NCBI GenBank assembly: GCA_036744835.1
Contig: DAIOHD010000001.1
Coordinates: forward strand, 82,320 to 146,319
From: Candidatus Magasanikiibacteriota bacterium
GTDB taxonomy: Bacteria; Patescibacteriota; Patescibacteriia; Magasanikbacterales; GWA2-37-8
Length of the DNA stretch: 64,000 nucleotides
Direction of reading: 5' to 3'
Program-made: the position numbers and the translations under genes
The notes under the pieces: model-generated
Told to the model about the DNA's origin: nothing
Database searches by the model: none
Seen by the model: the letters and a program-made list of their open reading frames with translations, nothing else
Shown here: piece after piece, positions 4,460-59,714 of the stretch
Layout: each line of letters starts with the position of its first letter
How positions within the stretch are numbered: position 1 is the first letter of the stretch

Positions 4460-4471
4460 TCTGATTAAAAA

Positions 4472-4497
4472 ATCACTCGAAAGGGTGATTTTTTGTT
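4472..4497 (+). terminator. rho-independent terminator after rpsA
   Basis: Hairpin AATCACTCGAAAGGGTGATT followed by TTTTTTGT. The same hairpin recurs after ftsH at 7714-7740. Confidence 0.6.
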
Positions 4498-5576: not shown

Positions 5577-5832
5577 ATTTTCTTGGTTCCTTGTGTCCTT
5601 GGTACTTGTTCTTGGACACTTGGATCCTTGGTTAGTTCTTTTATGCTCCTGCATGTAATGTGCAGGAGTCTTTTTTTTATACAATAATAGTTAGGGCTTG
5701 CCGGGCGTAGTCCGCCAGCTGACGGATGAAGCCTGGGGCTTGCCGGGCGTAGCTTTAGCGAAGACCGGTTGATTTTTTCTCACATATATAGTATGATGAA
5801 AATACTCTAAATTATATTAAAAACGTTTATTT

Positions 5833-7659: not shown

Positions 7660-7833
7660 GTAGGTAAGCGGTAAAGTTGTAAAGCCAATGATTTAATAAG
7701 CTAATAAGCAAAAATCACTCGAAAGAGTGATTTTTTGTAGTCTGAAGACTACAAGTCTAATATATTGACAAAACACAAACTTTACTCCTATAATAAATTG
7801 TTCTTTATTAAAAACAAATAAAAGGAGGATAAA

Positions 7834-8058
7834 ATGGATTTTTTAATGGAATGTACGGATAACAAATTAGATTTATTTTGTGCCCGTTGTCAAAAGAGTA
7901 CACAACATCTCCGTTTTGAAGAAGACCCGAGAATTGGTAGGATTATTTGGACCTGTTCTATTTGTAAAAAGAAAAAATCCACCAATAGTCAGGGATTGGA
8001 AAGACAAGAGGAAGTAGAAATTTTTGACGAGGATGATGAAAAGGAAGAAGAGATTTAA
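7834..8058 (+). CDS. small zinc-ribbon protein, paralog family member 1 (CxxC..H..W..CxxC) with acidic tail
   Basis: 74-aa ORF. FCARCQKSTQHLRFEEDPRIGRIIWTCSIC. Promoter TTGACA(7766)-18-TATAAT, RBS AAAGGAGG, terminator hairpin at 8069-8090. Confidence 0.55.
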   Translation: MDFLMECTDNKLDLFCARCQKSTQHLRFEEDPRIGRIIWTCSICKKKKSTNSQGLERQEEVEIFDEDDEKEEEI

Positions 8059-8148
8059 ATATAAAGACCGGCATAACCGGTCTTTTTTATTTCTAAAACA
8101 AAACTCGATCAATTAAGATCGAGTTTTTTGTGGTTTGTAGTTTGAATA

Positions 8149-9297
8149 CTATTTTACATTCTTTACAATTATTTTTATTTTATCCGGTAAAGTTGGAGCA
8201 GTACTGTTCCAAGAAGGAGAAAATTTTACACTTACACCAGTGACGTGTGGTAATCCAACAATATATCTTTCTATTTCGCTTTTTTCTTTACCTGTAAAAT
8301 TTGTTTTTGCCAAACTTTGCGCTTCGGCATTGAGAGTGACCAGGGTTTCTTGAGTAACATTTAATTGTGCGGTTTGAGCAGTCAAATCAGTGGAAGCTAT
8401 GGTTACATTTGGTTCGCCAGAAAGAGAAAGAATTTTTTCTGCGTCATTATCTATAGTTTTGCCTATTTCTTTATTTAATATTTCCTCCAAATCTTTTTTA
8501 GCAAAAAATACTCCGACAATTGTACTGGTTCCGCTTAATCTGAAACTACCAACTTCATCTCCGGCCTTATTGGAAGCCGTAGGATTGGAGTCGGAAACAG
8601 TTACTATTTTGAAATCAGCCCAAATTTCGGCTTCGCCTAATTGTTTGATGTAGGCTTGTTTTATTTTTTCTTTAAAATCATTTTTAGCGGTATTAATATC
8701 GCTTTCAGAGACTATGCCGATTTTGCCACTACCGCCAGTCATAGGTTTGGAACTTTGTGCATAAACCAATTTTTGTCTTTCGACGGATAGCCCGGGAATG
8801 GTAAATTTTGTCGGACCGATATCACTGGTTGCACCATTTTGATCAGCATAAACTTTGGCAATAATTTGGTCGCGAGCCGGTATGGTAACCCTATCTTCTA
8901 AACGAAACAAAACATTGTCCGGAGAAAGTAGGCGAGTAGTTTTGACCAAAGTTTGACTTTCGTTTGTGTTGTTGTAGATAATTACTTCGCCTTTGGAAAT
9001 ACCTTCTACCGATTTGGCGCCGGTCGGAGTATAATTTTCAGAATGAAAAAATTTAGTGGTGGTAACAACTGCAACTATATTTTTATCATCGCTTTTTTCT
9101 TTGACTGTATTCACAGTTAAATTTATAGTTTTTTTGTTTTCTTTGGCAATGATAGTAATTTCGGTTTTTTTGAGTGCTGAGAAAACAACCACAGTTAATA
9201 AAATGACGGTTAAAGCCAAGAAAGAAAAGGCAATAATCCGATATGTTTTTACCGGCGGTTCATGAGCCGGTTTAGTAGAAAGACGATGAGCGTACAT
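8149..9297 (-). CDS. hypothetical membrane-anchored (N-terminal TM) extracytoplasmic protein
   Basis: 382-aa ORF. TM segment IIAFSFLALTVILLTVVVFSAL, then a Thr/Ser-rich beta-type domain. No recognised motif. Confidence 0.5.
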   Translation of the reverse strand: MYAHRLSTKPAHEPPVKTYRIIAFSFLALTVILLTVVVFSALKKTEITIIAKENKKTINLTVNTVKEKSDDKNIVAVVTTTKFFHSENYTPTGAKSVEGISKGEVIIYNNTNESQTLVKTTRLLSPDNVLFRLEDRVTIPARDQIIAKVYADQNGATSDIGPTKFTIPGLSVERQKLVYAQSSKPMTGGSGKIGIVSESDINTAKNDFKEKIKQAYIKQLGEAEIWADFKIVTVSDSNPTASNKAGDEVGSFRLSGTSTIVGVFFAKKDLEEILNKEIGKTIDNDAEKILSLSGEPNVTIASTDLTAQTAQLNVTQETLVTLNAEAQSLAKTNFTGKEKSEIERYIVGLPHVTGVSVKFSPSWNSTAPTLPDKIKIIVKNVK

Positions 9298-9432
9298 AAA
9301 AATTTATTAAATATTGGATATTAAATATTGGATATTAAATATATTAAACAATATCTAATATCCAGTATCCAATATCCGTTTGAACAAACTAAACCAATAT
9401 AGTTTTATTATATCATTTTTAATGGTTTGTGA

Positions 9433-11133
9433 CTACTCAATTACACGGAACACTTCTTCCACTGTTGTAACCTTATTTAAAGCCTTTAATAGGCCGTCTT
9501 GCACCATAGTTACCATGCCATTTTTAACCGCAATTTCTTGGATAGCATATTCGGATGTTTGACCGGTTAAAATAATTTCTTCAATTTCTTTATTCATGGT
9601 AAATATTTCATAAATACCAATACGTCCTTTATAACCCAAGCCAGAACAGGACTCGCAACCTTTTCCTCGAAAGAACTTCAAATTTTTAAAATCAATTTTT
9701 GTTTTTTCTCCTTCTGGTAATTTGTTTAATTGCTCTTCGATTCTTTTCATTTTTTCACTATCTATTTTTTCTTCTTCAATACAATTTGGACAGATGCGGC
9801 GAACTAAACGTTGACCTATAATAGCATTTAGTGATGGAGCTAATAAAAACGGCTTTACACCCATAGAAAGGAAGCGGGGTAGGGCACCAGAAGCACTATT
9901 GGTATGAATAGTGGAAAGCATCAAGTGGCCGGTCAAAGCGGATTGGATAGCAATTTCTGCGGTTTCTAAATCACGGATTTCCCCAACCATACAAATATCC
10001 GGGTCTTGACGCAAAATACTACGCAAGCCTTTGGCGAAAGTATAATCGCGACTTGGATCAACTTGACTTTGATTGACGCCTTCCATTTTTATTTCCACCG
10101 GATCTTCCAATGTAATGATTTTAACCCCAGGTTTATTGAGAGTGCGTAAGATGGCATAAAGAGTAGTGGTTTTACCAGAACCTGTCGGGCCGGTGGTAAT
10201 AATCATTCCGTTTGGACGTTCTATTTCTTTTTTGAGACGTTCATAGGAATCGCCATAAAAGCCAAGATCATCAAAGGTTACACCCTTGCTTCCGGAAAAT
10301 AAAATTCTCATTACAATACTTTCCCCATAAGTTGTTGGCATAGTAGAGACACGAACATCGATATTACCGGCAGGTAATTTTAAAGTCACGCGACCGTCTT
10401 GGGGTTTGTTTGTAATATTGATTTTGAGTGCGGCCAAAAGTTTGATGCGTGAGCAAAAACGCTTCCATTGATCTATCGGTAAGTTGGCGACATCATGAAG
10501 TACACCGTCAATACGATAGCGCACGGCAATACCTTTTTCTTCGGCTTCTACGTGGATATCGGAACTATTGAGTTTGAGAGCGGAAGCGATAATTAGAGTT
10601 AAAATATCGGTAATGCTAACATTTTTAAATTTTTCTTCCAAGGATTGAATATTGGTCATTTCCACTTGGTATTTATCTAGTTCTTCCTGAGTAATATTTA
10701 TATCTTTGGTAATAGGTTTGATAATCGGCAGATTGGCATAAAGTTTTAAAACATATTCTAAACTAGTGTCGGAAATCAGATAAAGCTCTGGTTCGGCATG
10801 GTGTTTTTCGCCGAGCTGATAAACAAATTCTTTCATTTCTTCGTCTATGTTAGTTGCGCCTATCTTGATTTTGTCTGGGACAGAATAAAAACAAACCACC
10901 TTTTTTTCTCGAGCCTGAGTTTCAGGGATGGCGCGCAAAGATTCAGCGGATACTGGAAAACCATGCAAGTTTATATAAAGTACATTTAATTCGCGAGCTT
11001 TTTTTTCAGTGTCAGTTTCTTTGCCTTGTTGTCGGATACTTTTAATTTTTTCTTGCAATTGATTTTGCACATCGTCGCTTTTTTTCTTTCCTCCTTTTTT
11101 TGTTAGATCATTGATAGATTGAAAACCGGACAT
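9433..11133 (-). CDS. pilB: type II secretion / type IV pilus assembly ATPase (GspE/PilB family)
   Basis: Walker A GPTGSGKTTTLYA, Asp/His boxes, tetracysteine CPNC...CESC motif, N-terminal GSPII_E N-domain. Confidence 0.9.
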   Translation of the reverse strand: MSGFQSINDLTKKGGKKKSDDVQNQLQEKIKSIRQQGKETDTEKKARELNVLYINLHGFPVSAESLRAIPETQAREKKVVCFYSVPDKIKIGATNIDEEMKEFVYQLGEKHHAEPELYLISDTSLEYVLKLYANLPIIKPITKDINITQEELDKYQVEMTNIQSLEEKFKNVSITDILTLIIASALKLNSSDIHVEAEEKGIAVRYRIDGVLHDVANLPIDQWKRFCSRIKLLAALKINITNKPQDGRVTLKLPAGNIDVRVSTMPTTYGESIVMRILFSGSKGVTFDDLGFYGDSYERLKKEIERPNGMIITTGPTGSGKTTTLYAILRTLNKPGVKIITLEDPVEIKMEGVNQSQVDPSRDYTFAKGLRSILRQDPDICMVGEIRDLETAEIAIQSALTGHLMLSTIHTNSASGALPRFLSMGVKPFLLAPSLNAIIGQRLVRRICPNCIEEEKIDSEKMKRIEEQLNKLPEGEKTKIDFKNLKFFRGKGCESCSGLGYKGRIGIYEIFTMNKEIEEIILTGQTSEYAIQEIAVKNGMVTMVQDGLLKALNKVTTVEEVFRVIE

Positions 11134-11135
11134 AT

Positions 11136-12101
11136 TTATTTTTGGAAAAATTTAATAAAAAAGTGACCGATACGCGGAAAAATACCTTCATGATGCATTC
11201 GCATAAAAAGATACATCCAAGTTCCGGTATTGAAAGCATTGTAAAAACCACCGATAAGAATTATCAAAAAAGTAATAATTAAAATGCTTAAAACAACTGA
11301 TAAATTCAGCAAAATAATGCTATTGAAGAGCCCGGCGATAAACCATAAAACAGTAGCCGGAATAAAAGATAATAAAATTATCATAGAAATAAATGAAGCT
11401 AAGATCAAGTCTAAAAAAAGCATTACTAAACTGATTTCAAACGAAACCAAAAAATGATTTTTAAAAAGAACAATACCGTCTTTGAGACCGGTAAAGAATT
11501 TCTTATTTTCCACCACTACATACCCGGATGCAAAAACAGTAATGGCGGAAATTACCAATCCCAAAAAAATAACGATAATAAAAGATAAAATCAAAAATAA
11601 AGAATTCCAAAAATTATTTTCCGGAACAATAAACCATAATCCGGTGGTAAAAACCAACAAAGATAAAAGTGTTAATTTTCTTATAATATCATAGCCTAAC
11701 ACTCTCCAAAAGTACTTATAACTTTTGTGCCAGGTGTCACTGAGATTTGAATGTTTTTTCTTTTTATAATATTCACAAACATTAATAATCAGAGATGTTT
11801 GTGCACAAACCGAGATAAAAATTACAATTGCTAAAACTGCTAAAATAATTTGTATAAACCAAACAATCGCAACAAAATTTCCTGGATCACTTACGGATAA
11901 TAATTTTAAAAGACCAAACCAGGGAAAGTGACTGATGTCCATTGTTTCTTTACTAACTAAAATCATTTGGCCCCAAAAACCTCCCATACCAAAAGGACTG
12001 ACAAATAGAGCGGAAAGAATCCCGAAAATCCAAAGAGACTTATTATTCCAGATAAGTTTGAATGATTGACTTAAAGCTTCGCGATAAGAAGGGGAGTTCA
12101 T
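11136..12101 (-). CDS. polytopic integral membrane protein of unknown function, co-operonic with pilB (stop/start 3 nt apart)
   Basis: 321-aa ORF with 6 or more hydrophobic helices. Not PilC-like by length or motifs. Confidence 0.5.
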   Translation of the reverse strand: MNSPSYREALSQSFKLIWNNKSLWIFGILSALFVSPFGMGGFWGQMILVSKETMDISHFPWFGLLKLLSVSDPGNFVAIVWFIQIILAVLAIVIFISVCAQTSLIINVCEYYKKKKHSNLSDTWHKSYKYFWRVLGYDIIRKLTLLSLLVFTTGLWFIVPENNFWNSLFLILSFIIVIFLGLVISAITVFASGYVVVENKKFFTGLKDGIVLFKNHFLVSFEISLVMLFLDLILASFISMIILLSFIPATVLWFIAGLFNSIILLNLSVVLSILIITFLIILIGGFYNAFNTGTWMYLFMRMHHEGIFPRIGHFFIKFFQK

Positions 12102-12406
12102 AAAAACTAAAAGTTAAAAGTTGAAAGTTAAAAAGCTCACGCTGTTAAATCCCCAAAGGAGTCCGCCTAAGGCGGAATTTAACTGGGGTAAATAAAGTCC
12201 AAAAATACAAAAAATTGTATTCTTTTGGAACAAAGATATTATAGCATATTTTGGCTAAAATGTGGAAATTTTTGAAAGGACAATTATCAACATCTAAAAA
12301 GAGTTGACAAAAAGGGTTTTTTTAGCTAAAATATCCTGTCGTTTATAAGACAAAAAATAAGTTCCTTTAATATAAAATATCAACAACGTTTTTTAGGAGA
12401 AGTACA

Positions 12407-13027
12407 ATGGAAAAAGAGATGATTTCCAAAATCGCGCCTTATTTTGAAGCGCGGCGATTATTTGAAAAACATGATCCGAACTCTCTTCCGAGCCTCAATA
12501 TCTTTCCTTTTTTTAAAAGGGAAAATATAAAGGCTTATCTGGACAAACACTACCGGCTTACTCCGGAGGAAGAAAAGGAATTTCTTTCTTGGTCTTTGGA
12601 ATGTATCATTATGCTTGAACCGGAAAATGATTTATCCAAGGCCAACGAACTTCTCCGGCTTTTCAAAAAAGAGTTTGACGATTTCTCGGTCAATAAGGCG
12701 GTGCTCAACGCTTTGGTTCAACAGAATTTCTGTGATGAAATTGCGCTTGACGACTTGCTTGACCTGTTGCGTAACTTGGAAATCAAACCTGGTTCTTCGG
12801 AAGTGTCCGATCTGATGGCTAAGTATACAGAACGCTTTTGTGAAAAATCTGCTAAATCTTTTGAAAACACCAAGAGGATTTTGACCAGTTTCAAAATGCT
12901 GGCGGAAAAATTTGAGGTGGATCTCAAGGATTTTAAAAACTGTTTTGAATCTTTGGTGAGTGATTATGAAAAATACCATCATTACAACTCTGCCGCTATT
13001 CTCAGAGAGTTTGCCAAAGAACTCTAA
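12407..13027 (+). CDS. hypothetical alpha-helical protein
   Basis: 206-aa ORF. Promoter TTGACA(12305)-17-TAAAAT, RBS AGGAGA, terminator hairpin ACCGCCCTTAAACAAGGCGGT at about 13046-13066. Confidence 0.5.
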   Translation: MEKEMISKIAPYFEARRLFEKHDPNSLPSLNIFPFFKRENIKAYLDKHYRLTPEEEKEFLSWSLECIIMLEPENDLSKANELLRLFKKEFDDFSVNKAVLNALVQQNFCDEIALDDLLDLLRNLEIKPGSSEVSDLMAKYTERFCEKSAKSFENTKRILTSFKMLAEKFEVDLKDFKNCFESLVSDYEKYHHYNSAAILREFAKEL

Positions 13028-13124
13028 AATAGTTTTTTCTTACCGCCCTTAAACAAGGCGGTTTTTTTATTGTGTTTTGCGACTGAGTTGACTTTTTTTA
13101 TGAAATTGCTATAATTTTGATTAA

Positions 13125-13285
13125 TAGTCAAAAGAACCAGCCCAGACGCATTGACGTTATGGTACCACTCTTTGGAGAAGCGACAATTTATTACTAAAAG
13201 TTAAATAACGGGTGGAACCGTCCTAAAAATTTTAAAGGACCCCGATATCTCTGTTTTTGAGGTATGGGGGTATTTTGTTTAATGA
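13125..13285 (+). promoter_or_regulatory. candidate T-box riboswitch leader upstream of thrS
   Basis: T-box-like AACGGGTGGAACCGTC (consensus AGGGTGGNACCGCG) at about 13207-13222. ACC-A (Thr codon + purine) at 13134-13138 as candidate specifier. Terminator-like hairpin CCCCGATA...TATGGGGG + TATTTTGTTT at 13240-13280. Confidence 0.45.
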
Positions 13286-13457
13286 CCAAACCTTGAATGA
13301 CCAATGACCAATCAAATTCCAAATCCTAAACCCTAATTACATTTGGACATTTAGACATTGGGTATTGATTGGGAATTGGGATTTGGACATTGGGATTTAA
13401 AAAGTTTAATCTACATTTAAATTTTATAAGTTATTATTTACTAATTTATTTAGATAT

Positions 13458-15293
13458 ATGAAATTAGATATTTCAATTATGCGTCACAGTTGCGCGCATT
13501 TAGTAGCTGCTGCTGTAGCCGAGCTTTATCCAAAAGCTAAATTTGGTGTTGGACCAACGGTGGAAAATGGTTTTTATTATGATATTGATTTTGGTGTGCC
13601 AGTAACAGAGGAAGATTTACAAAAAATTGAGGATAAAGCCAAAGAGTTTCAAAAGCAAAATTTAGAATTTTCCCGTCAAGAGATGACCCTTGACAAATCC
13701 ATAGACTTGTTTGCAAAAATGGGTCAAACATACAAAGTTGAGCTACTCAATGATCTTAAAACCAAAGGCACGACTAAAGTTAATGATGAAGAATTGGCTG
13801 AAATTGGCGGAAATATTGATAAAGTCACTATTTATCAAACCGGTAATTTTATAGATCTTTGTCGTGGCCCGCATTTGAAATCCACCAAAGAAATTGGTGT
13901 TTTCAAATTAAATAAAATAGCGGGTGCTTATTGGCGTGGTAAAAGCGAGAATCCTCAATTGACTCGTATTTATGGACTGTGTTTTGCTAAACAAAAAGAA
14001 TTGGATGAATATTTACAACTTTTAGAAGAAGCGGAAAAGCGTGATCATCGAAAATTGGGAAAAGAATTAGATCTATTTCATATTGATGATATGGTTGGTT
14101 TGGGTTTACCACTCTGGCATCCAAAGGGCGCTATTTTATGGCGTTTGATTGAGGATTTTTGGTATAAATATCATTTAGCCAATGGTTATGAATTGGTCCG
14201 GACTCCACATATTGGAAATAAAGTATTATGGGAAACTAGCGGACATTGGGGATTTTACAACGACAGTATGTACCCACCGTTGGAAGTCGGACAAACCCTC
14301 AAAGAAAGTCAGACAAACCAAGAAGTAAAAGAGCAAGAAACTTATTTGCTCAAACCCATGAATTGTCCTTTTCATGTTCAGATTTTTAAAAATCGTCCTT
14401 ATTCATATCGTGAACTTCCTTTACGTTGGGCAGAATGCGGTACGGTTTATCGTCATGAGAAAAAAGGTCAATTATCTGGACTAACTCGCGTGCGTGGTTT
14501 TACTCAAGATGATGCGCACATCATTTGTTCCAAAGAACAAGTAGAAGAAGAACTCAAAAGAGTAATAGATTTTATTTTATTTATTTATAAATCTTTTGGA
14601 TTTAATATCGAAGATGTTCAAGTATTTTTATCTTTACGTGATCCAAAGGACAAAGAAAAATATGTTGGAGGGAATGAAGGTTGGGAATTGACAGAAAGTG
14701 TTTTACGTAAAGTGGCCAAAGAAAAGAAGTTGAATTTTACCGAAGAAGAAGGTGAAGCCGCTTTTTATGGTCCGAAATTGGATTTTAAAATCAAAGATTG
14801 TTTGGGTCGTTTGTGGCAATGCTCTACATTGCAATTTGATTTTAATTTACCTGAACGTTTTGATTTAAATTTCGTTAACAATAAAGGTGAACAAGAACGT
14901 CCATACATGTTACATCGCGCGTTATTCGGCTCTTTTGAAAGATTTATTGGTTTGCTTATTGAACATTATGCGGGCGCATTTCCAGTTTGGTTTGCCCCGA
15001 CTCAAATTATACTCGTGCCGGTTAGTGAAAAACATGTAGAAGGTGCGCAAAAAATAAAAATGGAATTGATTGAACTTGGTTTGCGAGTAGAAAGCGATGA
15101 AGCGGATGAAACACTTGGTAATAAGGTTCGTAAAGCCGTGAAACAAAAAGTTCCGTATATTATTGTGGTAGGGGACAAAGAATTAGCCGGGGATGATTGG
15201 ATGATCAGAATCAGGGGGGTGGAAAAACAAGAAAAAATGAGTAAAGAAAAATTTATTGAAAAGATTTTGAGAGAAGTAAAAGAGAGAATATAA
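13458..15293 (+). CDS. thrS: threonine--tRNA ligase
   Basis: Class II aaRS motifs (MNCPFHVQIF, RVRGFTQDDAHIIC, FYGPKLDF), editing-domain N-terminus, anticodon-binding C-terminus. Confidence 0.9.
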   Translation: MKLDISIMRHSCAHLVAAAVAELYPKAKFGVGPTVENGFYYDIDFGVPVTEEDLQKIEDKAKEFQKQNLEFSRQEMTLDKSIDLFAKMGQTYKVELLNDLKTKGTTKVNDEELAEIGGNIDKVTIYQTGNFIDLCRGPHLKSTKEIGVFKLNKIAGAYWRGKSENPQLTRIYGLCFAKQKELDEYLQLLEEAEKRDHRKLGKELDLFHIDDMVGLGLPLWHPKGAILWRLIEDFWYKYHLANGYELVRTPHIGNKVLWETSGHWGFYNDSMYPPLEVGQTLKESQTNQEVKEQETYLLKPMNCPFHVQIFKNRPYSYRELPLRWAECGTVYRHEKKGQLSGLTRVRGFTQDDAHIICSKEQVEEELKRVIDFILFIYKSFGFNIEDVQVFLSLRDPKDKEKYVGGNEGWELTESVLRKVAKEKKLNFTEEEGEAAFYGPKLDFKIKDCLGRLWQCSTLQFDFNLPERFDLNFVNNKGEQERPYMLHRALFGSFERFIGLLIEHYAGAFPVWFAPTQIILVPVSEKHVEGAQKIKMELIELGLRVESDEADETLGNKVRKAVKQKVPYIIVVGDKELAGDDWMIRIRGVEKQEKMSKEKFIEKILREVKERI

Positions 15294-15347
15294 AAATAAG
15301 TTATAAAATAAAAAACGCCTCGACATTTAGTCGGGGCGGTTTTGTGT

Positions 15348-15812
15348 TTATCTCCTTTTGGCCGGTTTTTTATCCCGGCTGATTTCTTTCATGATTTCAA
15401 GATAGGTTTTTGACCCTATCTTATCCATAATGAACTGGCGGTGTTTTTCGCACACCAAAAACATTATCATTCCTTTTCGATAAAACTGCGAGTGGATAAA
15501 AGACTCAATAATACTGCGAGATCCGCTGGTAAAGATCGTATTGATTGTATCAAAAGAAAAAGATTTTTCTGGAAATACATCGGCACGGTTGGAGCGGATA
15601 AGTTCCAGCAAGCACTCAATATCGTCTTTGATGATTTCCCAGACCTTTTCTTTTTCCGCTTCAGAGAAAAGATCAAAAAGGTAGGGGGTGGATTTTTTCA
15701 ACAGCGTCAAATCTGGGTTTTTTTTGGAAAGCGCCGACAACAGCGTTTCTTTCTCTCGTTTTTTACGAACTTCTTCTTGATTAAAAATCTTCGCTTGTTT
15801 TTCGTTTGTCAT
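15348..15812 (-). CDS. hypothetical protein
   Basis: 154-aa ORF. RBS AAGGAGG 5 nt upstream, promoter TTGACT-16-TAAAAT on the minus strand at about 15850-15880. Confidence 0.45.
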   Translation of the reverse strand: MTNEKQAKIFNQEEVRKKREKETLLSALSKKNPDLTLLKKSTPYLFDLFSEAEKEKVWEIIKDDIECLLELIRSNRADVFPEKSFSFDTINTIFTSGSRSIIESFIHSQFYRKGMIMFLVCEKHRQFIMDKIGSKTYLEIMKEISRDKKPAKRR

Positions 15813-16002
15813 CGTTTCCTCCTTTGAGGGAAGTTGTTTTTAAAGAACATATGAATTTTACTTCTTTTATTTCAAAAGTCAAGGTTTGAGGGGATTTACC
15901 CTGTGAAATTCCGTCCGCCTCGGCGGATGGACCGGCTTTACCGGATTTTACAGGGTAAAAAATCCGCCCTAAAAAGGGCGGACTAAAATAAAAGAACTTT
16001 GT

Positions 16003-16242
16003 TTAAACATCCAGAGTGGCTCTGGGAGCCAAGCGAACACATTCTTCCCAAGGGATATTCTTTGTTTCTATGCGTTGACAGACAACGCAGGTCGTTTTTT
16101 TTTCGCTGACGCCGTTATTCCAAGAAACACCTTCAAAGTGTTCTGTTTCCATCTGACAACGACCTTGACAGAATTTTTTTATTACTCCAAGGCTTTGATA
16201 AGAAGCGGACGGCGGATAACGATATTCATTGTTGTCGCGCAT
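16003..16242 (-). CDS. small zinc-ribbon protein, paralog family member (CxxxC..H..W..CxxC)
   Basis: 79-aa ORF. FCQGRCQMETEHFEGVSWNNGVSEKKTTCVVC. Minus-strand promoter TTGACA-17-TATAAT (rc of about 16275-16305), RBS AGGAGG, terminator hairpin CCGCCCTAAAAAGGGCGG at 15968-15987. Confidence 0.5.
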   Translation of the reverse strand: MRDNNEYRYPPSASYQSLGVIKKFCQGRCQMETEHFEGVSWNNGVSEKKTTCVVCQRIETKNIPWEECVRLAPRATLDV

Positions 16243-16381
16243 TTTTTCCTCCTGGAAAAATATTTTTTAAAAAAGGACCAGGAAGATTATATAATAAAAA
16301 AATAAAATTGTCAATCTAGGTTATGCTAAAGCTACGCCGGGCAAGACTTTAATTTATTAAAAACCGCCCACAGGGGGCGGT

Positions 16382-16609
16382 TTAGGAAGGGAGTTTGGCA
16401 AGCATCTGAGCTTCTTTGAAGGATTCGTAATCAATCTTTTTCTTAAGAGTTTTTTTACATTTTTCACAGCGGAAAACGCTCAGATACAAACCGGCATCAT
16501 GGTTCCACGCCAGTCCGGTGTGATGAGTGGTGTGCATCCCGCATTTTTTGCAAAAAGATTCCTGTTTGTCCTTCTTGTTAAAAGAGAAATTCAACTTTTG
16601 TGTTTTCAT
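16382..16609 (-). CDS. small zinc-ribbon protein, paralog family member
   Basis: 75-aa ORF. FCKKCGMHTTHHTGLAWNHDAGLYLSVFRCEKC. RBS GAGGAGAGG. Terminator hairpin AACCGCCCACAGGGGGCGGTT at 16361-16381. Confidence 0.5.
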   Translation of the reverse strand: MKTQKLNFSFNKKDKQESFCKKCGMHTTHHTGLAWNHDAGLYLSVFRCEKCKKTLKKKIDYESFKEAQMLAKLPS

Positions 16610-16727
16610 TTTCCTCTCCTCTTGTTTATGTGTAGTGTACTGATTATATCCTAGTAGTTATTGAAATTAATGTCAATTCTATGGATAGTTGCCAAAACAT
16701 CAAAAAACCGCTAAAATGCCCTAGATT

Positions 16728-18089: not shown

Positions 18090-18128
18090 GATTGAAAAGA
18101 TTTAAAAAATTAAAAAGATTAAAAAGAT

Positions 18129-18220
18129 TGTCATTGCGATCCGCCGGCTGGCGGAGAAGCAATCCCACGGATTTTATATAAAATAATGAGATTGCCACGG
18201 CCTTTGGCCTCGCAATGACA
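18129..18220 (+). mobile_element. MITE-like element copy downstream of miaB
   Basis: GTCATTGCGATCCGCCGGCTGGCGGAGAAGCAATCCCACGG...GCCACGGCCTTTGGCCTCGCAATGACA. Confidence 0.7.
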
Positions 18221-18361
18221 CAAATAACCCTGCTTTTAGCGGGGTTTTATTATTGTTTAGATATAAAATCTTCCAGTTAGCATTGACAAAACTCGCTTTT
18301 TGTGCTATATTATGATGTAATTCAATTAGTACTTTAATAATAAAAATAAAAGGAGGAGAAG

Positions 18362-18751
18362 ATGAGAAGGCTAATCCTGATTACCTTTTCTGATCCGACA
18401 GATACTTGGTATAGTTCGCAATCTCGCGAATACATCAAGTATTTTTTGGAAAGGATCAAGAGTCGGTTTGGTGTTGAAGAAGATGTTGAAATCGTTATTA
18501 AATACATCAATCTTACTCCTGGCACCGAGCCTGCCCATGTACTAGGCAATTTTTTCCGGGATAAAAATCCGGAAGTAATCGGTGTGTTTGTGCAAGCTCA
18601 TAAAGTTCTCGAGATAAACAAAAAAATTTTGTTTCTCGCGGAAATTTTGAGGGAAAAACAGCATCCGATAGAGATCTTTTACTTTGAAAACAAAAAAGCA
18701 TTTATTTTGCAGTCTGTTTTTCAAGGAAAAATGGAAGGTGAAGAATTATAA
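18362..18751 (+). CDS. hypothetical protein, tandem paralog A
   Basis: 129-aa ORF. Strong RBS AAAGGAGGAG. N-terminus MRRLILITFSDPTDTWY...FLERIKSRFGV is similar to the next gene. Confidence 0.5.
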   Translation: MRRLILITFSDPTDTWYSSQSREYIKYFLERIKSRFGVEEDVEIVIKYINLTPGTEPAHVLGNFFRDKNPEVIGVFVQAHKVLEINKKILFLAEILREKQHPIEIFYFENKKAFILQSVFQGKMEGEEL

Positions 18752-18854
18752 GCCCCGCGATATTGTCGGGGCTTTGTTTTTGACAAAAATATTGCAAAGG
18801 AGTAAATTAGTAGTCTGTTCTTTTAATAAAACTTTTTTAGAGAGGGGGTGGTAA

Positions 18855-19223
18855 ATGCCAAAAGTTGTATACATTACTTTTGAAGTAGGAACGGAAGTTT
18901 TTTGGCAAGAAGACAGATTTCAAGCCGGAAGAAAAAAATTCTTTGAGATTATAAAAGGTCGTTTTGGCCTCTTGGATATCAAAGATGATTTTGAACCGGT
19001 TATTGCAATGAATCAACTTGGTTTTCTGAAATTGAAAAACGGCGAAATTTTACCGCCAGAAATGGTAGAAAAACTTCTTTCCGAGTACGGAAACAACGAA
19101 ATAGTCATTGTAGACAAATGTCAAGAAAAAGAGCTTGATGACAAAATTAAAGCTTTTATTTCAAAACACAAAAACTTCCATGCTTTGGAGGAAGTAATAG
19201 AAGACCATCATAAATTTTTATGA
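18855..19223 (+). CDS. hypothetical protein, tandem paralog B
   Basis: 122-aa ORF. N-terminus MPKVVYITFEVGTEVFW...FFEIIKGRFGL parallels the gene at 18362. Bidirectional terminator CCGCGGCCCAGTCCGCGG at 19228-19250. Confidence 0.5.
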   Translation: MPKVVYITFEVGTEVFWQEDRFQAGRKKFFEIIKGRFGLLDIKDDFEPVIAMNQLGFLKLKNGEILPPEMVEKLLSEYGNNEIVIVDKCQEKELDDKIKAFISKHKNFHALEEVIEDHHKFL

Positions 19224-19256
19224 AAAGAAACAATCCGCGGCCCAGTCCGCGGTTTT

Positions 19257-19892
19257 TTATTTCACCTCGGCAAATCTCACTGTTTTCTCAAATAATTCAT
19301 TAGCCTCGTCGGGCAAGATAACCCCGGGGGTAGAAGAAAATTTTTCTTTTTGCGGATTAAGATCGGTTAGCTCAGGAACAAAGTTTTTTTGAACTATCAA
19401 AACACCGTTTTCAGTTTGAAAATAATATTGGTCGTGGCCGCACCCTTCAACTCCTTGCGTTAACTTGTACCCTTCGCGGTCTCCGATTTTTGTTTTTTCC
19501 AAAAACCCGACCTCTTCTTTTATAGTGCCGTCGGTATTTATAAACTCTTTTAGGTATTCCCCGCCAAATTTTGTCAGAGCTCTATCAAGCGATAGAGTGG
19601 TAAAAGAAAATTTGATAGTGAGGTCTTTGAAAGTAGTGGTTGGCAGAGAATCACCCTTGAAATCACAAAAATCCGTATGAAGAAAAGTTTCTACCATATG
19701 GGAAAGAGTTATTGTCCCATTCTCATCTTTTATTGCAAAGGGCTCTAAAAGGATTATTTTTAAATCTGCAGTTTCGTAATATTTTTGTTCTATGACCCCT
19801 GGCATTGGATAGGGTTGTTCATTGGTTATTTTTAAACAACCGGAAATAAGAAATAAGGATAAAAGTAATCCAAAGAAAGATACTTTTTTCAT
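19257..19892 (-). CDS. hypothetical lipoprotein
   Basis: Signal peptide with lipobox LISGC. 211 aa. Confidence 0.5.
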   Translation of the reverse strand: MKKVSFFGLLLSLFLISGCLKITNEQPYPMPGVIEQKYYETADLKIILLEPFAIKDENGTITLSHMVETFLHTDFCDFKGDSLPTTTFKDLTIKFSFTTLSLDRALTKFGGEYLKEFINTDGTIKEEVGFLEKTKIGDREGYKLTQGVEGCGHDQYYFQTENGVLIVQKNFVPELTDLNPQKEKFSSTPGVILPDEANELFEKTVRFAEVK

Positions 19893-20012
19893 AATATTTT
19901 TTAAGGTATTAATTATTAGGTTAGTATATTCTGTCTAGATTTTTTTATCAAGACGATACCGTTGGTCAATTTTTTTTGACGAAAAAAATAAAATTGGTAT
20001 AATGGATTTATT

Positions 20013-20951
20013 ATGAAAAATAAACTTTCTAAATTGGTAGTTGTCTGCGGGCCAACTGCTAGTGGTAAAACCGACCTGACTATTGCTTTAGCCAAACAAT
20101 TTAACGGCGAAATAATTAGTGCTGATTCTCGGCAAATTTATAAGGAAATGGATATTGCAACGGCAAAACCAATAAGAGTTGAAAGTAGAAAGTTGAAAGT
20201 AGAAAGTAGCGATAACGGCGAATATTTGATAGACGATATACCACATTATTTATTGGATATAATAAGTCCGGATGACAGTTTTACACTTAGCGATTATAAA
20301 GAGCAAGCCCAAAAAGCGATTAATGAAATTATCAAAAAAGGTAAAACCCCTTTTTTGGTTGGAGGAACAGGTCTTTACATTAAAGCGATAGTAGATAATT
20401 TGGAAATCCCTAAAGTGGAGCCAAATTTAGCTTTACGAAAAGAGCTAGAAAATAAAAAACAGGAAGATTTGATTCTCATGCTTAAGGAAAACGATCCAGA
20501 TGCTTTTGAAAAAATAGATTTACAAAATCCGCGACGAGTTTTGAGAGCTTTGGAGGTTGTTTTAAGCACTGGAGAATCTTTTTTGAAACAACAGAAAAAA
20601 GGTAAGCCTCTTTATGATGTTTTACAATTGGGAATTAAAGTGGATAAAGAAAATTTACACAGTAGAATAAATAGTAGATGTGAAAAAATGATTGAAGTTG
20701 GGTTGATTCAGGAAGCTAAACGATTGGCACAAAAATATTCTTGGGAATTGCCCAGCATGAGCGGTATAGGTTACCGTCAAATGCGTGATTACATCGAAGG
20801 CAAGATGTCACTTGATGAAGCCCTTGATTGGCTTAAGATAGATACTCGGCATTATGCCAAGCGTCAGATGACTTGGTTTAAAAAAGACGAAAGAATTATT
20901 TGGATAGAAAACGAAAAACAAGCACAAAAGAAATTAGAAGAATTTTTATAA
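20013..20951 (+). CDS. miaA: tRNA dimethylallyltransferase
   Basis: P-loop GPTASGKT, DSRQIYKEMDIATAKP, overall MiaA architecture. Promoter TTGACG-TATAAT immediately upstream. Confidence 0.85.
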   Translation: MKNKLSKLVVVCGPTASGKTDLTIALAKQFNGEIISADSRQIYKEMDIATAKPIRVESRKLKVESSDNGEYLIDDIPHYLLDIISPDDSFTLSDYKEQAQKAINEIIKKGKTPFLVGGTGLYIKAIVDNLEIPKVEPNLALRKELENKKQEDLILMLKENDPDAFEKIDLQNPRRVLRALEVVLSTGESFLKQQKKGKPLYDVLQLGIKVDKENLHSRINSRCEKMIEVGLIQEAKRLAQKYSWELPSMSGIGYRQMRDYIEGKMSLDEALDWLKIDTRHYAKRQMTWFKKDERIIWIENEKQAQKKLEEFL

Positions 20952-21026
20952 AAACCCGCTCTTAGTTAAGAACGGGCCGAGTGTATAAGATTTTAACTGC
21001 TGTCTAGTATGTCGGCAGTTTTTTAT

Positions 21027-22934
21027 TTATTGTTGAATGTCTTCAAAAAATTGAGTGACTGTTTCTCCGGAATCTGCACTCTCTTCAAATAACAAAGTCT
21101 CTGTTCCCATAAAAGTCATAGTTTGCTTGGTGACAGTGTCTTCAGCGGAAATTTTGATTTTGGAAACTAGTACTTGTTGAGAAGGATTTTTCTTGTTGAT
21201 TATCAAGGAAAAAGGGAAAATCAATGTATTGATATCTCCAGGCATATTTTCTATTTTCCAAGTAATAACTTTTTCTTTTTGTTCAAAAGTCAAAACTCCA
21301 GTAGGTAAAGTTGTGGAAACAAAATCAACATCTCCATAAATTTCGGCGGTTAATTCGATATTTTTTAAAGGGTGAAAATTATTGCGTAAAATCCAAGTCA
21401 AGTCGCGCTTGTCTTTATTATCGGCGGTTTTATCGACATTTACTTTTTTCTCAAAAGTAAAATCTGAATTTATCGTTATTTTTACAGGATTGCTGATTAC
21501 GATTTTGTTTTCTTTAGCATCATCAGTAAAAGTTATTTCTGCTACGGCCGAGATAATAGACTCTTTCAAGCTAGCAAGTTTTATTTTTGAACTATCTTTT
21601 ATTGGTAGTTTTAAATCGACATTAATTTCTTGATTGGGTTTGATTTCCGTCAATTCTTTTATTTTGCTTTTATTCCAAGTAACAGTTCCATTACGTAGAT
21701 TATCGTTGATTTGTTTACCTATGATATCACCGTCAAAAGTATCTGTGATTTCTGGCCAATCCAAAATACTGACTTTTTGCAAAGCCGGTGCATCTAATTT
21801 AAGAGCCAAAGAAGCATTTTTTAACGAAGTTTTACCGGCATTTTTAAAACTAAGTGTAATATTTAGCGGGTCTCCTGGTTTGAGTCCAAAATCGCTCATT
21901 GTACCGTTGATAGCTAAATTCATAAGGTAAGCGGTACGAGATAAGGCAATTTCGTTTTCGATTTTTCCTATTTGATAAATTTGTCTAGCTGCTAAAATTG
22001 GTAAATCCAAAGAAGCAAGTAATTTGTGAGTGGTTTCTAATTCACCATTAAAACGTCCGATAAGTTTGAAGTTTTTTGGAAAATAATCGGAAGAAGTCGG
22101 GGTAATAACCCAACGATTTTCAGTATCAAGTGCCGGAGTGGCAGAAACGATAAAAAAATTATCCGGAACTTTTAAAGCTAAATACATTTTTTCCGGTACA
22201 AAATTATTTTTATTTTCTAGTTTATAGTTTATTTCAAAATCAGAGCCGTAAGCTGCGCGCTCAGGAATTTTCGAACTTAGAGTAAAGGGGGATAAAGACA
22301 CTTTTGTGTTTAAAGTTGCTATTTTCTGCATTTGAGAATTTAAATTTCCAGGTTTGTAGTTTAAGAATACTCGCCAAGAACCTTGTTGTTGTAAGGATCC
22401 AAAATTTTGTCCGGAAATATTAATTTCAGCTGAAGATAGTGCTGGAATATCTGAGAGCGACCACTCTGTGTTTCCTAGATTGTCGGCTAGAATATCGCTT
22501 TCTTTAAAAATAAAACCTTCCGGATAATTAATATTAAGCGTTACATTGTTTAGAGGGTAACTTAAATCATTAGTAATCAATATTTTATAGGTACTAGTAC
22601 CGCCAAGCTCTAATTCTTGTGGCCCTTCGATGGTTAAATTTATTTTTTCTTCAGAGAATTTTTCTCCTTGAGGAAAATAAAAAAATCCGGCCCAAGCGGA
22701 AACTGCCATTATGGAAGTGATAAATAATAAAAACAGTATAAAATGTAATAATGGATTACGACGACGGAGTTTTATTTTTTTCATGTCGGGCATTTTGCCG
22801 TTTTGGTCTTCATAAATCAAGGCGATTTTATCGGCAATTTCTTTTTGTTTGTTTTCTCCTAATTCTTTATCGAAAAAATCCCTTTTTTGTTTTCGAGGTC
22901 GTTTTGTGGATAAAATATTTTTTTTCTCAAGCAT
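21027..22934 (-). CDS. large membrane-anchored surface protein with repeated Ig-like/CARDB-like beta domains
   Basis: 635 aa. Basic cytoplasmic N-terminus, one TM (LLHFILFLLFITSIMAVSAWAGFF), long extracellular region. Co-operonic with the DUF4012 gene upstream. Confidence 0.55.
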   Translation of the reverse strand: MLEKKNILSTKRPRKQKRDFFDKELGENKQKEIADKIALIYEDQNGKMPDMKKIKLRRRNPLLHFILFLLFITSIMAVSAWAGFFYFPQGEKFSEEKINLTIEGPQELELGGTSTYKILITNDLSYPLNNVTLNINYPEGFIFKESDILADNLGNTEWSLSDIPALSSAEINISGQNFGSLQQQGSWRVFLNYKPGNLNSQMQKIATLNTKVSLSPFTLSSKIPERAAYGSDFEINYKLENKNNFVPEKMYLALKVPDNFFIVSATPALDTENRWVITPTSSDYFPKNFKLIGRFNGELETTHKLLASLDLPILAARQIYQIGKIENEIALSRTAYLMNLAINGTMSDFGLKPGDPLNITLSFKNAGKTSLKNASLALKLDAPALQKVSILDWPEITDTFDGDIIGKQINDNLRNGTVTWNKSKIKELTEIKPNQEINVDLKLPIKDSSKIKLASLKESIISAVAEITFTDDAKENKIVISNPVKITINSDFTFEKKVNVDKTADNKDKRDLTWILRNNFHPLKNIELTAEIYGDVDFVSTTLPTGVLTFEQKEKVITWKIENMPGDINTLIFPFSLIINKKNPSQQVLVSKIKISAEDTVTKQTMTFMGTETLLFEESADSGETVTQFFEDIQQ

Positions 22935-22942
22935 ATAAATTG

Positions 22943-25540
22943 TTATTTATTTTTTTCCATCAATAAACTCCAAATACCATCCCTTTTTAAGGGGGTTTCA
23001 GGGATAAAATGTCCATTTAGGGCCAAGTTACTATTTTCTCCGGAATTCCAAACAGGTTCAAAGTTTTCCGGATAAATAACCTGAGATTCAAAAGTACTTC
23101 GGGAGCCAGATTGCCTTTGTACTACTATTTGATATTGAGAAGTGATTTTATTGGAGTTTAATAAAGTGTCAAATATTTTTTTATCGGGATTTTTATTGTC
23201 AGTAAAAGCCTTGAAAGGCAATCGATAAATAAATTGAACGGTACTTTTTGTACCAGGCTCGGTGATCACCCAATTACCAAAAGCTGTTTTGCCGAACTCT
23301 TTAGTTATACGTGTACCGGATAATTCTTCAATACCTATTTCTTTTTCCCAGGAAGCTAAGTCAAGATCTTTTACCGCGCCTTTTACCGGAGCACGGAAAT
23401 ATTTTTCTTCCGGCCAAGTAAAGCCATGTGCTGAAATTATTTCACTTCCCTCAGGAACATAAAGACGTAAATAATTAATATTGGTTTGGCCATAAAAATT
23501 TTGTCCCAAAATTCCCTCGTGAATACGAGTAATGGTGACAGTATTGATTATAGTGCCGTCTTTTTCAACAAGAGATTGGTGATAAATTGATTGTTTTATC
23601 TGAGCATCACTTTTTTGACCCTGGATATTACTGTTAACTACCATTAAATAGTCTTTATCATCGGGGGTTTGTATGATTCTACCACCCCATCCAAATCTTT
23701 CGACAGCTTGTTGTGTAGCCGGAGCGGTAAAATAAACTTGAACCTCTTTTTGTATTAGAGCTTCATTTAAATTAAAAAGAAGAGGTAACGTATTTTTAGG
23801 TTCAAGTGAAAAAATCGAAGATAAAAATTGTGGTGCTAAATCCGAAATAATTTGTTTTGGTTTGTTTTCTTTTTTTTCAGATCCGTTTTCGACTATGTTT
23901 TGTAAGGAATTTAAAGCTGTTTTTTCGCTAAGAACCAGCTCTCTTTTTTCATCTGTAATCGGCCCAACCAAAGAGAGAAGTCTTTCCAAAACCGAAGAAT
24001 TTACCGCTATAACGCCGTCTAGAGTGATATTACGACTATGGCGATAAAACCAAAGCATCTTTTCTGCGGATATTTTAAAATCCGGAAACCAATTAGCGTC
24101 TTGAAATTCCCATTTTTTATTTGATAAAAATAAAGGATTTGGAGGTTCAACCAATACACTTGATTGGCCTTGTAAATCATAAGATCCTCCAGCCGGAATT
24201 TCTATTTTTTCTATTTTACCATTTTTGATATCAAGAACTGCGAAACTACCCATAAAACCTCCGGTAGCTCTAATTTCGGCTTCATTTTGAAAAACCACCA
24301 AATAGCGGCGTAAAGAAGAATTACCAAAAATTTCATTGATATTTTGACTTAAATCAGAGATATTTTTTAAATCTGATAAAAGGTTTTGAAATAGTAAGGT
24401 AAAATCTTCAAAAGCAGAGCGATATTCCAAAGGTAAAATATCGACTTTTACCTTATTCATATTTTCAAAAGCATCTTCATAATTTGGAATGGCGGATTTT
24501 AAATGAGTGGAAACAATATTTAATCTTTCCAAAGGAGAAAGTTCTTGATTGTTAGCTTCAGAAATTCCTTTGATAAGATAAGTGTTGGCTAAAGCTATTT
24601 TTTGCCCGGCTAATACCAGATTTTGTCGGCTTTGCACTTCGGATTTTAATATTGGCACTCCGGAAATGATTTTTTGTAAAATTCGGTGGCTTTGTATTTC
24701 TTCAACCGCGGTATTGAAATTTTCTAGAGCATGTACTATAGAGTTTTGGGCGACAGGTAAGTTGGCGGTCATAATAGCAGCGGTTGAATCTTGCAAGGCC
24801 ATGAATCCGCCGGTGCCACTTTGGGTTATTTTTTCAGTGCTTATCTTTAAATTGGTATAAAAAGTTCTAGTTTGCAAAGGCAAAGCTAAAATAATCAAAA
24901 TAGTCATGGTAACAGCCAATGATTTGCGCCAATTTATTTTTTCCAACGAGGAAACAAAAGAAAAAAGAGGTTTATCTGGTTTTTGAATAGTATATTCTTT
25001 ATCTTTTTTTGCTACGTTTTTAGAAAGTTTATCAACAAGAGACTCAAGATCTTCCAATTCTTTGGCAAGTTCTCCTACTAAAGAGTTAAAATTTGATATA
25101 TTTTCTTCCTTTATTGATTTATTTTCGAATTTTTCTTCAATAATATCTTTTTTTGAAAAACTAGATTCCGAAACGAAATTGATATTTGCTAAAGGAATTT
25201 TTTCTTTTGTTTGTTTATTTATTTTTTCATAAAATTTTTCCCATTCATTTTTTTCTTCCCTGGGCGAAGAATCTTCCAGAGAATGCCAGTGATTTTTTGG
25301 ATTTTTTAGATTGACTATATAGGGAGAAACGGTGTCGGAATTTTTTTGTTCCGGATTATGATAGAGAATTTTAATTTTTTTATTTACAGGTAAGGAACTT
25401 TTTATTTCTGATTTTTTTTGAGAAAGCAAAAAATCCGGACAAGTGGCTTTGTTATGTCCGGGTTTGTTGCAAAACTGGCAACGACGAAGTTGAATTCTTT
25501 TTTTAGCGCGCATGAGACTGAAAATAAACTTAAAATTCAA
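22943..25540 (-). CDS. DUF4012-domain surface protein with N-terminal CCHC zinc knuckle
   Basis: 865 aa. N-terminus CQFCNKPGHNKATC (C-x2-C-x4-H-x4-C). TM helix. The DUF4012-type motif RYLVVFQNEAEIRATGGFMGSFAVLDI is recalled from memory. Confidence 0.6.
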   Translation of the reverse strand: MNFKFIFSLMRAKKRIQLRRCQFCNKPGHNKATCPDFLLSQKKSEIKSSLPVNKKIKILYHNPEQKNSDTVSPYIVNLKNPKNHWHSLEDSSPREEKNEWEKFYEKINKQTKEKIPLANINFVSESSFSKKDIIEEKFENKSIKEENISNFNSLVGELAKELEDLESLVDKLSKNVAKKDKEYTIQKPDKPLFSFVSSLEKINWRKSLAVTMTILIILALPLQTRTFYTNLKISTEKITQSGTGGFMALQDSTAAIMTANLPVAQNSIVHALENFNTAVEEIQSHRILQKIISGVPILKSEVQSRQNLVLAGQKIALANTYLIKGISEANNQELSPLERLNIVSTHLKSAIPNYEDAFENMNKVKVDILPLEYRSAFEDFTLLFQNLLSDLKNISDLSQNINEIFGNSSLRRYLVVFQNEAEIRATGGFMGSFAVLDIKNGKIEKIEIPAGGSYDLQGQSSVLVEPPNPLFLSNKKWEFQDANWFPDFKISAEKMLWFYRHSRNITLDGVIAVNSSVLERLLSLVGPITDEKRELVLSEKTALNSLQNIVENGSEKKENKPKQIISDLAPQFLSSIFSLEPKNTLPLLFNLNEALIQKEVQVYFTAPATQQAVERFGWGGRIIQTPDDKDYLMVVNSNIQGQKSDAQIKQSIYHQSLVEKDGTIINTVTITRIHEGILGQNFYGQTNINYLRLYVPEGSEIISAHGFTWPEEKYFRAPVKGAVKDLDLASWEKEIGIEELSGTRITKEFGKTAFGNWVITEPGTKSTVQFIYRLPFKAFTDNKNPDKKIFDTLLNSNKITSQYQIVVQRQSGSRSTFESQVIYPENFEPVWNSGENSNLALNGHFIPETPLKRDGIWSLLMEKNK

Positions 25541-25672
25541 AATTACAAATCCTAAATAAATTATAAATTAAAAAATCCAAAATTCTAAACATAAAAAAAG
25601 CGTTTGGTGCTTTTAATTTAAAATATTAAAATTTATTTGGAACTTGTGATTTTGAATTTGTTGTTTTGTTTA

Positions 25673-26809
25673 TTATACCATTTTTTTATAAACCGATAAA
25701 GTTATTTCAGTAGTATTTTTTTGGCTATACCTAGCTAAGATATTTGGTATGTTGTTGATAAGTTTTTGACGAATGTTTAAATCTGTTAAAACAAGATTGA
25801 TTTTTGAATAAATATCTTGTTCATTTTGTGGTTCAAAGTATAAAACGGCATCTCCTAAAATTTCCGGCAAACAGGTTGCGTTCGAAGAAATTACTGGAAT
25901 TTGATATTGCATGGCTTCAAGTGGTGGAATGCCAAACCCTTCGTATAAAGAAGGAAAAACATAAGCAGTGGCATTTTTATAAAGTACTGACAGATCTTTA
26001 TCAGACAAAAAATCGGTAAAAATTACATTTTGGCAGCTCTTAAGAATTTCAGAATTTATCAAACGATTGTAAAAATAATTTTTTTTACCCACCAAAACAA
26101 GTTGAAACTTTTGATTTTTTTCCTCGAACATTTTCCAAGCTTTTACCAATCGTTCTAGATTTTTATGGGGATAAGCTACGCCAACATATAACAAATACGG
26201 TTTTGTTATTTTGTTTTTGGTCAATATATTTTCTTTTCCATACTTAATACCAGATACTTGATATTCAATACCCAAATCGGTGGGGGCGAGGTAAGTTACG
26301 GTAATTTTATCTCCCGGGATATGTAAAGTTTGAACAATGTCTTGTTTAGTAAATTCGCTTGGAGTTATTATTTGTTTAGCTTTTTTGACCGCGTGGCTTA
26401 GGATAAATTTGTAAGCGAGATTTTTGAAAAAGTATGTTAATGGACCTAAGGTGCTAGCTGTTTTGCTAGGGTGGTGCAATAAAATCAAGTCGTGGACTGT
26501 AACTATAAATTGTCCACGATAAAAAACAGGGGTATTCCAATGGGGAAAATGGATAAAATCGCATTTTTCTTTTCTTAAAATTTTTGGCAATAAAATTTGC
26601 TCTTGCCATCCATACCACGGAATGTCAGCTAAAATTTTTTTGAAACGAGGATTTTTTGGTTGATATTCTGCAAAATTTTCTGTACGCAAAAAAATGACGT
26701 AATCGTTGGTTTGATCCGTTTGTTCCAACCCTTCGATCAATTGTTGTAAATATCGCCCTAAACCACCTTGTTTTGGGCCATAGAGACGAGCATCAATGCC
26801 AATTTTCAT
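25673..26809 (-). CDS. glycosyltransferase family 4 (GT-B fold)
   Basis: The track ORF extends to 26863, but MKIGIDARLYG at 26809 is the likelier start. EX7E-type C-terminal motif region (FPSLYEGFGIPPLEAM). Confidence 0.8.
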   Translation of the reverse strand: MKIGIDARLYGPKQGGLGRYLQQLIEGLEQTDQTNDYVIFLRTENFAEYQPKNPRFKKILADIPWYGWQEQILLPKILRKEKCDFIHFPHWNTPVFYRGQFIVTVHDLILLHHPSKTASTLGPLTYFFKNLAYKFILSHAVKKAKQIITPSEFTKQDIVQTLHIPGDKITVTYLAPTDLGIEYQVSGIKYGKENILTKNKITKPYLLYVGVAYPHKNLERLVKAWKMFEEKNQKFQLVLVGKKNYFYNRLINSEILKSCQNVIFTDFLSDKDLSVLYKNATAYVFPSLYEGFGIPPLEAMQYQIPVISSNATCLPEILGDAVLYFEPQNEQDIYSKINLVLTDLNIRQKLINNIPNILARYSQKNTTEITLSVYKKMV

Positions 26810-26946
26810 AATTAATTCAATTATAAGATAGATTTCTTCTTTCGCCAAGCCTACAAAATACAACGGATTTTGACAATTTTTTTAAACATGATAGAATAAT
26901 TTGTCGTTCTTTTTTAAAATCAATATCCAAACACTGGAGGCGCCCC

Positions 26947-27177
26947 ATGTCTGACTTTTTTGAGAGTCCTACTGAGAAAGAGAAAAACACCACTGAAGAA
27001 CGCTTTTGTATTAAATGTCACGACAACAAACTCCACAAAATTTTTTATGCTGAAAGAACCGGAAGTATTTGGGAAAAAAGAACTTGCTGTGTTTGCGGTA
27101 CTTTTGGTCAGAAAAGTTTATCCACAAAAGAGGAGGAAGTCGTTAGGCTTAAGTATGTGGTGGTATCCTTTGATTAA
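26947..27177 (+). CDS. small zinc-ribbon protein, paralog family member
   Basis: 76 aa. FCIKCHDNKLHKIFYAERTGSIWEKRTCCVCG. Promoter TTGACA-TAGAAT at about 26905-26933, RBS GGAGG, bidirectional terminator at about 27195-27218. Confidence 0.55.
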   Translation: MSDFFESPTEKEKNTTEERFCIKCHDNKLHKIFYAERTGSIWEKRTCCVCGTFGQKSLSTKEEEVVRLKYVVVSFD

Positions 27178-27219
27178 AGGATTTAAGATAAATAGACCCC
27201 TAAAAAAAAGGGTCTTTTT

Positions 27220-59404: not shown

Positions 59405-59714
59405 TTTTTCCTCTCTTTGAAAATTAATAATATAAAGGACGTATAAAGGTATTTAATAGGAGTTTGAGGAGAATGTCAAATGGTTTTTTAAATCCCAATG
59501 TCCAATTCCCAATGCCCAATGAATGCCCCCGCCTTCGCCCTTTGGGCTACGGACGGGCAAGCAAGCCTAAATGTCCAAAAATAATTAGGGTTTAGGATTT
59601 GGGGTTTGATTGGTCATTGGGGTTTGGTCATTAAAGTAAGGTTGACTTTCACCCAATCTCATAGTAAACTTTTTATCATACCCCTATATAAACAAAGTGA
59701 GGGGCATTTTGCTT

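Follow-up and report, generated by a model that had tools for sequence, protein, structure and literature searches.

Haloarchaea encode a family of zinc-finger micro-proteins with the signature C(P)xCG, rubredoxins carry the signature CxxCG ... CPxCG, and among the ribosomal zinc ribbons eL42 has a long, basic, rRNA-penetrating inter-strand loop of about 35 residues and bL33 has a TxH strand after its second knuckle. According to one report (PMC6562870), the HVO_2753-type micro-proteins of Haloferax volcanii are non-enzymatic, shorter than about 80 amino acids (aa), equipped with a single C4 zinc-binding domain, present several per genome and individually transcribed, and deletion mutants grew normally in optimal conditions. 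Four genes on this general plan lie in a 64,000-nucleotide stretch of DNA from Candidatus Magasanikiibacteriota bacterium, a member of the Patescibacteria or Candidate Phyla Radiation (CPR); the whole of this stretch (contig DAIOHD010000001.1, positions 82,320 to 146,319) is hereafter called the window. We read their products, with a probability of about 0.6, as accessory zinc-ribbon micro-proteins with a binding or regulatory role that form a very narrow, undescribed family in one CPR lineage. Neither the fold nor the general kind is new: genomes with several stand-alone zinc-finger micro-proteins are on record, Haloferax (PMC6562870) being one example. However, the two sets have no sequence relationship, the C(P)xCG signature is absent from the proteins studied here, and the host is a bacterium rather than an archaeon. 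Strain-level presence or absence and allelic replacement, which mark the genes in the window, do not appear in the Haloferax description (PMC6562870).

The four open reading frames (ORFs) are as follows, with the ratio of non-synonymous to synonymous substitution rates (dN/dS) given for each.

7834..8058, + strand, ORF for a zinc-ribbon protein (from translation; dN/dS 0.15 versus locus L102)
16003..16242, - strand, ORF for a zinc-ribbon protein (from translation; dN/dS 0.13)
16382..16609, - strand, ORF for a zinc-ribbon protein (from translation; dN/dS 0.05)
26947..27177, + strand, ORF for a zinc-ribbon protein (from translation; dN/dS 0.11 versus locus L091)

Their products are 74–79 aa long, and the translations agree exactly with those of the sequence-only reading that first drew attention to these ORFs. 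Since orthologs were found in related metagenome assemblies and all four are under purifying selection, with dN/dS values of 0.05–0.15, they are real genes, and spurious ORFs are ruled out.

The shared pattern proposed for these proteins, F-C...H...W...CxxC, stands in part. Across 21 family sequences the four Cys residues are invariant, and the Thr and His that follow the first knuckle are at least 90% conserved. The Trp, on the other hand, does not fall in one homologous column. The Cys residues form two CxxC-type knuckles, 21–24 residues apart in the four proteins, and in the predicted structures the knuckles sit on the turns of two β-hairpins that make up a small sheet. The chain is predicted to form a four-stranded ribbon with long hairpins, and the structures that match it best are ribbons of ribosomal proteins and RNA polymerase. 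We are therefore confident that the predicted fold is a C4 zinc ribbon, in agreement with the zinc-ribbon assignment suggested earlier. Because pairwise BLASTP among the four proteins gave low bit scores (18–30), their relatedness was addressed by building subfamily alignments, including divergent alleles from related loci, and comparing these with hhalign, with shuffles in which the Cys columns were held fixed as the control.

The family is very narrow. When 1.84 billion representative proteins were searched exhaustively with a hidden Markov model (HMM), 18 matched at E ≤ 1e-3, about ten of them small proteins of 59–81 aa, and this bears out the earlier suggestion of a lineage-specific family. 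From the sequence searches, it appears to be previously undescribed and confined to one Patescibacteria lineage, and a literature search retrieved no study of proteins of this kind from CPR bacteria. Four larger matches (P0015, P0017, P0020 and P0023) were checked against Pfam and rejected as members: three of them contain repeat domains that are of zinc-finger type or unrelated, and P0020 matches DUF6273 only. One further metagenomic protein, P0021 (218 aa), carries two tandem Z-like ribbons of the form 'LFCxxCNExTxH...CxxCGF', each followed by a module of about 70 residues that ends in 'VRVxTKPYR'; this duplicated, extended relative might hint at a partner domain. In Pfam and NCBIfam scans all matches of the four proteins were weak and stayed below the curated cut-offs, as expected from the claim that they match no curated family. 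The PHROGs scan gave the same result, and the HVO_0649 family model, whose cut-off is 70 bits, scored 11.

Loci encoding threonyl-tRNA synthetase (ThrRS, the thrS product) from GTDB genomes, together with homolog-bearing contigs, were aligned to the window. The identities of related loci to five window proteins, in the same column order in each row, are given below.

L008: 91%, 89%, 65%, 95%, 83%
L010: 92%, 88%, 62%, 49%, 33%
L009: 91%, 87%, 38%, absent, absent
L090: 84%, 83%, 28%, 39%, 30%
L103: not covered, 86%, not covered, 44%, 27%

In close relatives the zinc-ribbon genes are thus partly missing or represented by deeply divergent alleles, and because close relatives either do without some of the genes or have very different versions of them, we regard the genes as accessory rather than as core machinery. 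In L009, a gene for a 154-aa protein stands alone between thrS and miaB. The cassettes show presence/absence polymorphism with clean boundaries: in five of the six relatives, nucleotide similarity restarts exactly at position 16689, which is the miaB promoter. GC content at third codon positions (GC3) is 0.375–0.49 in the thrS–miaB islet versus 0.26–0.33 in the flanking genes. More distant ThrRS relatives, at 53–65% identity, come from metagenome-assembled genomes (MAGs) of Moraniibacteriota, Paceibacterota, Falkowbacteria and Magasanikbacteria; no zinc-ribbon genes lie beside thrS in these CPR genomes from GTDB, and the carriers are the closest relatives only. Two loci, L009 and L010, bear the title 'uncultured Gammaproteobacteria bacterium', and their thrS–miaB regions are about 80–86% identical at the DNA level to the Patescibacteria window; these contigs are probably mis-binned or mislabelled.

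Each zinc-ribbon gene had been described as monocistronic, with a promoter, a Shine-Dalgarno (SD) site and a terminator of its own, and these signals recur at all four: a near-consensus sigma-70 promoter in front of the gene, a GGAGG-type SD site, and a GC hairpin with a T-run immediately 3' of the stop codon. The signals are kept in the related locus L008. Promoter strength is high, yet it is shared with other genes of the window, in which 19 promoters have at least 11 of 12 matches, several of them upstream of housekeeping genes. The elements and intervals around the four genes are listed here.

7685..8149, no strand, interval enclosing ORF 7834–8058
7765..7794, + strand, element 5' of ORF 7834–8058
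7822..7828, + strand, element just 5' of ORF 7834–8058 (read from the sequence)
8063..8091, + strand, element just 3' of ORF 7834–8058
15300..16689, no strand, interval enclosing ORFs 16003–16242 and 16382–16609
15957..15983, - strand, element 3' of ORF 16003–16242 (read from the sequence)
16286..16314, - strand, element 5' of ORF 16003–16242
16359..16381, - strand, element directly 3' of ORF 16382–16609 (read from the sequence)
16648..16676, - strand, element 5' of ORF 16382–16609
26870..26897, + strand, element 5' of ORF 26947–27177
27194..27221, no strand, element 3' of ORF 26947–27177

Taken as accessory zinc-ribbon micro-proteins, the four genes would encode stand-alone, single-domain C4 ribbons, in which the two Cys knuckles may grip one structural metal ion, presumably zinc, at the end of the four-stranded sheet, with the conserved T-x-H placed on the strand that follows knuckle 1. 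Each ORF, together with its strong promoter, SD site and terminator, would make up a self-contained cassette, set in a short variable islet amid conserved housekeeping genes, and the cassettes would be retained by purifying selection where they are present and be missing or deeply divergent in close relatives. Judging from the predicted models, the Cys site is probably structural and zinc-binding. Since the proteins are too small to house a catalytic site, and no signature of catalysis was detected, they would most likely serve as small binding or regulatory modules that dock on nucleic acid or on a protein machine. Their dispensability and allelic turnover would argue against a core ribosomal role and fit strain-specific adaptation or conflict. 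That this is a real family of zinc-ribbon micro-proteins, and an accessory one, seems to us very probable; any specific partner would be named with far less assurance.

Several points weigh against this interpretation. The binding-module function is deduced from the fold, the size and the absent catalytic signature, and the metal binding is a model-based prediction. The picture of variable islets comes from six related loci, some of them on short contigs and two of them in MAGs mislabelled 'Gammaproteobacteria'. The deep allelic divergence could in part be due to rapid neutral drift in short proteins and not to conflict, but dN/dS is low between close strains. Finally, a role in association with the ribosome would likewise be compatible with the strong promoters, the resemblance of the motif to eL42/bL33 and the translation-related neighbours miaB and thrS.

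The proteins might, then, be additional or variant ribosomal proteins, or factors associated with the ribosome, that derive from the bL33/eL42 lineage and bind rRNA near the E site, which we consider improbable. When the family profile was searched against all PDB sequences, archaeal eL42/L44e came out on top (E 0.002), aligned at both knuckles, and bL33, eS27 and eL43 came next; however, C2H2 fingers score about as well as eL42, so this E-value is inflated by Cys content, and the alignment to eL42 falls into two short pieces flanking a gap in eL42. A 'small CPxCG-related zinc finger protein' (PDB 8q5b) appeared in the same search at E 0.14. Comparison with small eL42 and bL33 alignments by hhalign gave 70–75% probability, above the Cys-fixed shuffles, over about 14–19 columns around '(F/Y)CxxCxxxTxH', a result to be taken as a lead only. 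Against such a kinship, the NCBIfam models score far below their cut-offs (bL33, NF001764, 10.6–11.3 bits versus 40; eL42/L44e, NF004425, 14.1 bits versus 87), so that placement in L33 or another ribosomal family, the outcome that could have overturned the sequence-only reading, did not emerge. Foldseek E-values are 0.04–0.5. What is shared is a C4 ribbon of two knuckles with the first-knuckle motif and a long strand after it; the long eL42 loop is absent from the proteins of the window, which have 21–24 residues between the knuckles, and the knuckle order differs from that of bL33, TxH following knuckle 1 here. Moreover, ribosomal proteins are not strain-variable, whereas the zinc-ribbon genes are dispensable and vary between strains, and do not behave as the universal, slowly evolving core gene that bL33 is. 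The eL42/L44e and bL33 ribbons are therefore the nearest known sequences and folds, with a weak likeness over about 17 residues, and the first knuckle resembles theirs, but the family belongs to neither. It is still less probable, to the point of being very hard to credit, that the proteins are rubredoxin-like iron-binding electron carriers. Small size, two CxxC knuckles and aromatic residues recall rubredoxins, and rubredoxins do occur among the PDB matches; those matches, however, have E-values of at least 0.067 and cover the second knuckle only, the rubredoxin signatures are absent, and the topology, a four-stranded ribbon with long hairpins, is another one. Pfam matches at E ≤ 10 do not include rubredoxin, DksA/TraR (zf-dskA_traR), Ogr/Delta (Ogr_Delta) or TFIIS_C, in keeping with the earlier remark that these are not rubredoxins proper. 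As no family cut-off was reached and the likeness to eL42/bL33 is weak and short, the four proteins are neither ribosomal proteins nor rubredoxins. The C-terminal ribbons of TFIIS, Rpb9 and RPA12 likewise have four strands, with functional residues on the tip of the strand 2–3 hairpin opposite the metal site, but the likeness is architectural only, with no significant sequence or structure score and no 'RSADE'-type loop. Bacteria have Gre/DksA factors in place of the TFIIS type.

Alternatively, the genes could be 'moron'-type cassettes of phages or other mobile elements, that is, zinc-ribbon regulators, anti-defence or host-takeover proteins captured in intergenic spots, for which Ogr/Delta-type phage activators would be the analogues, although their Pfam profile is unmatched. 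The self-contained promoter–gene–terminator units, the clean presence/absence boundaries and the atypical GC3 of the islet are what such an origin would leave, and two distant members of small size, P0026 and P0027, are embedded in long, phage-like strings of short co-directional genes of no known function. On balance this origin is unlikely: no integrase, repeat or mobile-element scar common to the cassettes was found, searches of IMG/VR, INPHARED and BFVD gave no significant match, no PADLOC model of anti-phage defence matched, and the promoters are of the host consensus type, like those of neighbouring housekeeping genes.

The proteins are encoded on an NCBI contig of 906 kb. Within the window, the neighbouring genes include ftsH, thrS, miaB, miaA and genes for a PilB-type ATPase and glycosyltransferases. 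In a six-frame scan, CxxC...CxxC in small ORFs outside larger genes occurred only in these four, and the family HMM found no fifth copy among 1025 ORFs. The remaining matches of the scan were two short frames lying within other genes or antisense to them and two UvrA paralogs. The latter, of 936 and 867 aa (39102–41912 and 59697–62300, both + strand), lie 18 kb apart in a genome of about 0.9 Mb, and the second has no match to the UvrA DNA-binding domain model. Two 29-bp terminator hairpins with 96.6% identity, at 7710–7738 and 4468–4496, follow ftsH and a gene ending at 4459, respectively, and a 21-bp repeat is common to 16325–16345 and 5739–5759.

The outcome is a new orphan zinc-ribbon family and no new mechanism. 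Small uncharacterised genes in CPR genomes often vary between strains in the way these slots do, which tempers the interest of the variable-slot behaviour. CPR genomes are rich in small proteins without an assigned family, and one set of these now receives a fold, a family and an evolutionary pattern, namely accessory cassettes in variable slots, including a co-inherited pair. If a partner is found, the family could reveal how ultra-small symbionts use minimal proteins to adjust transcription or translation or to deal with phages and hosts.
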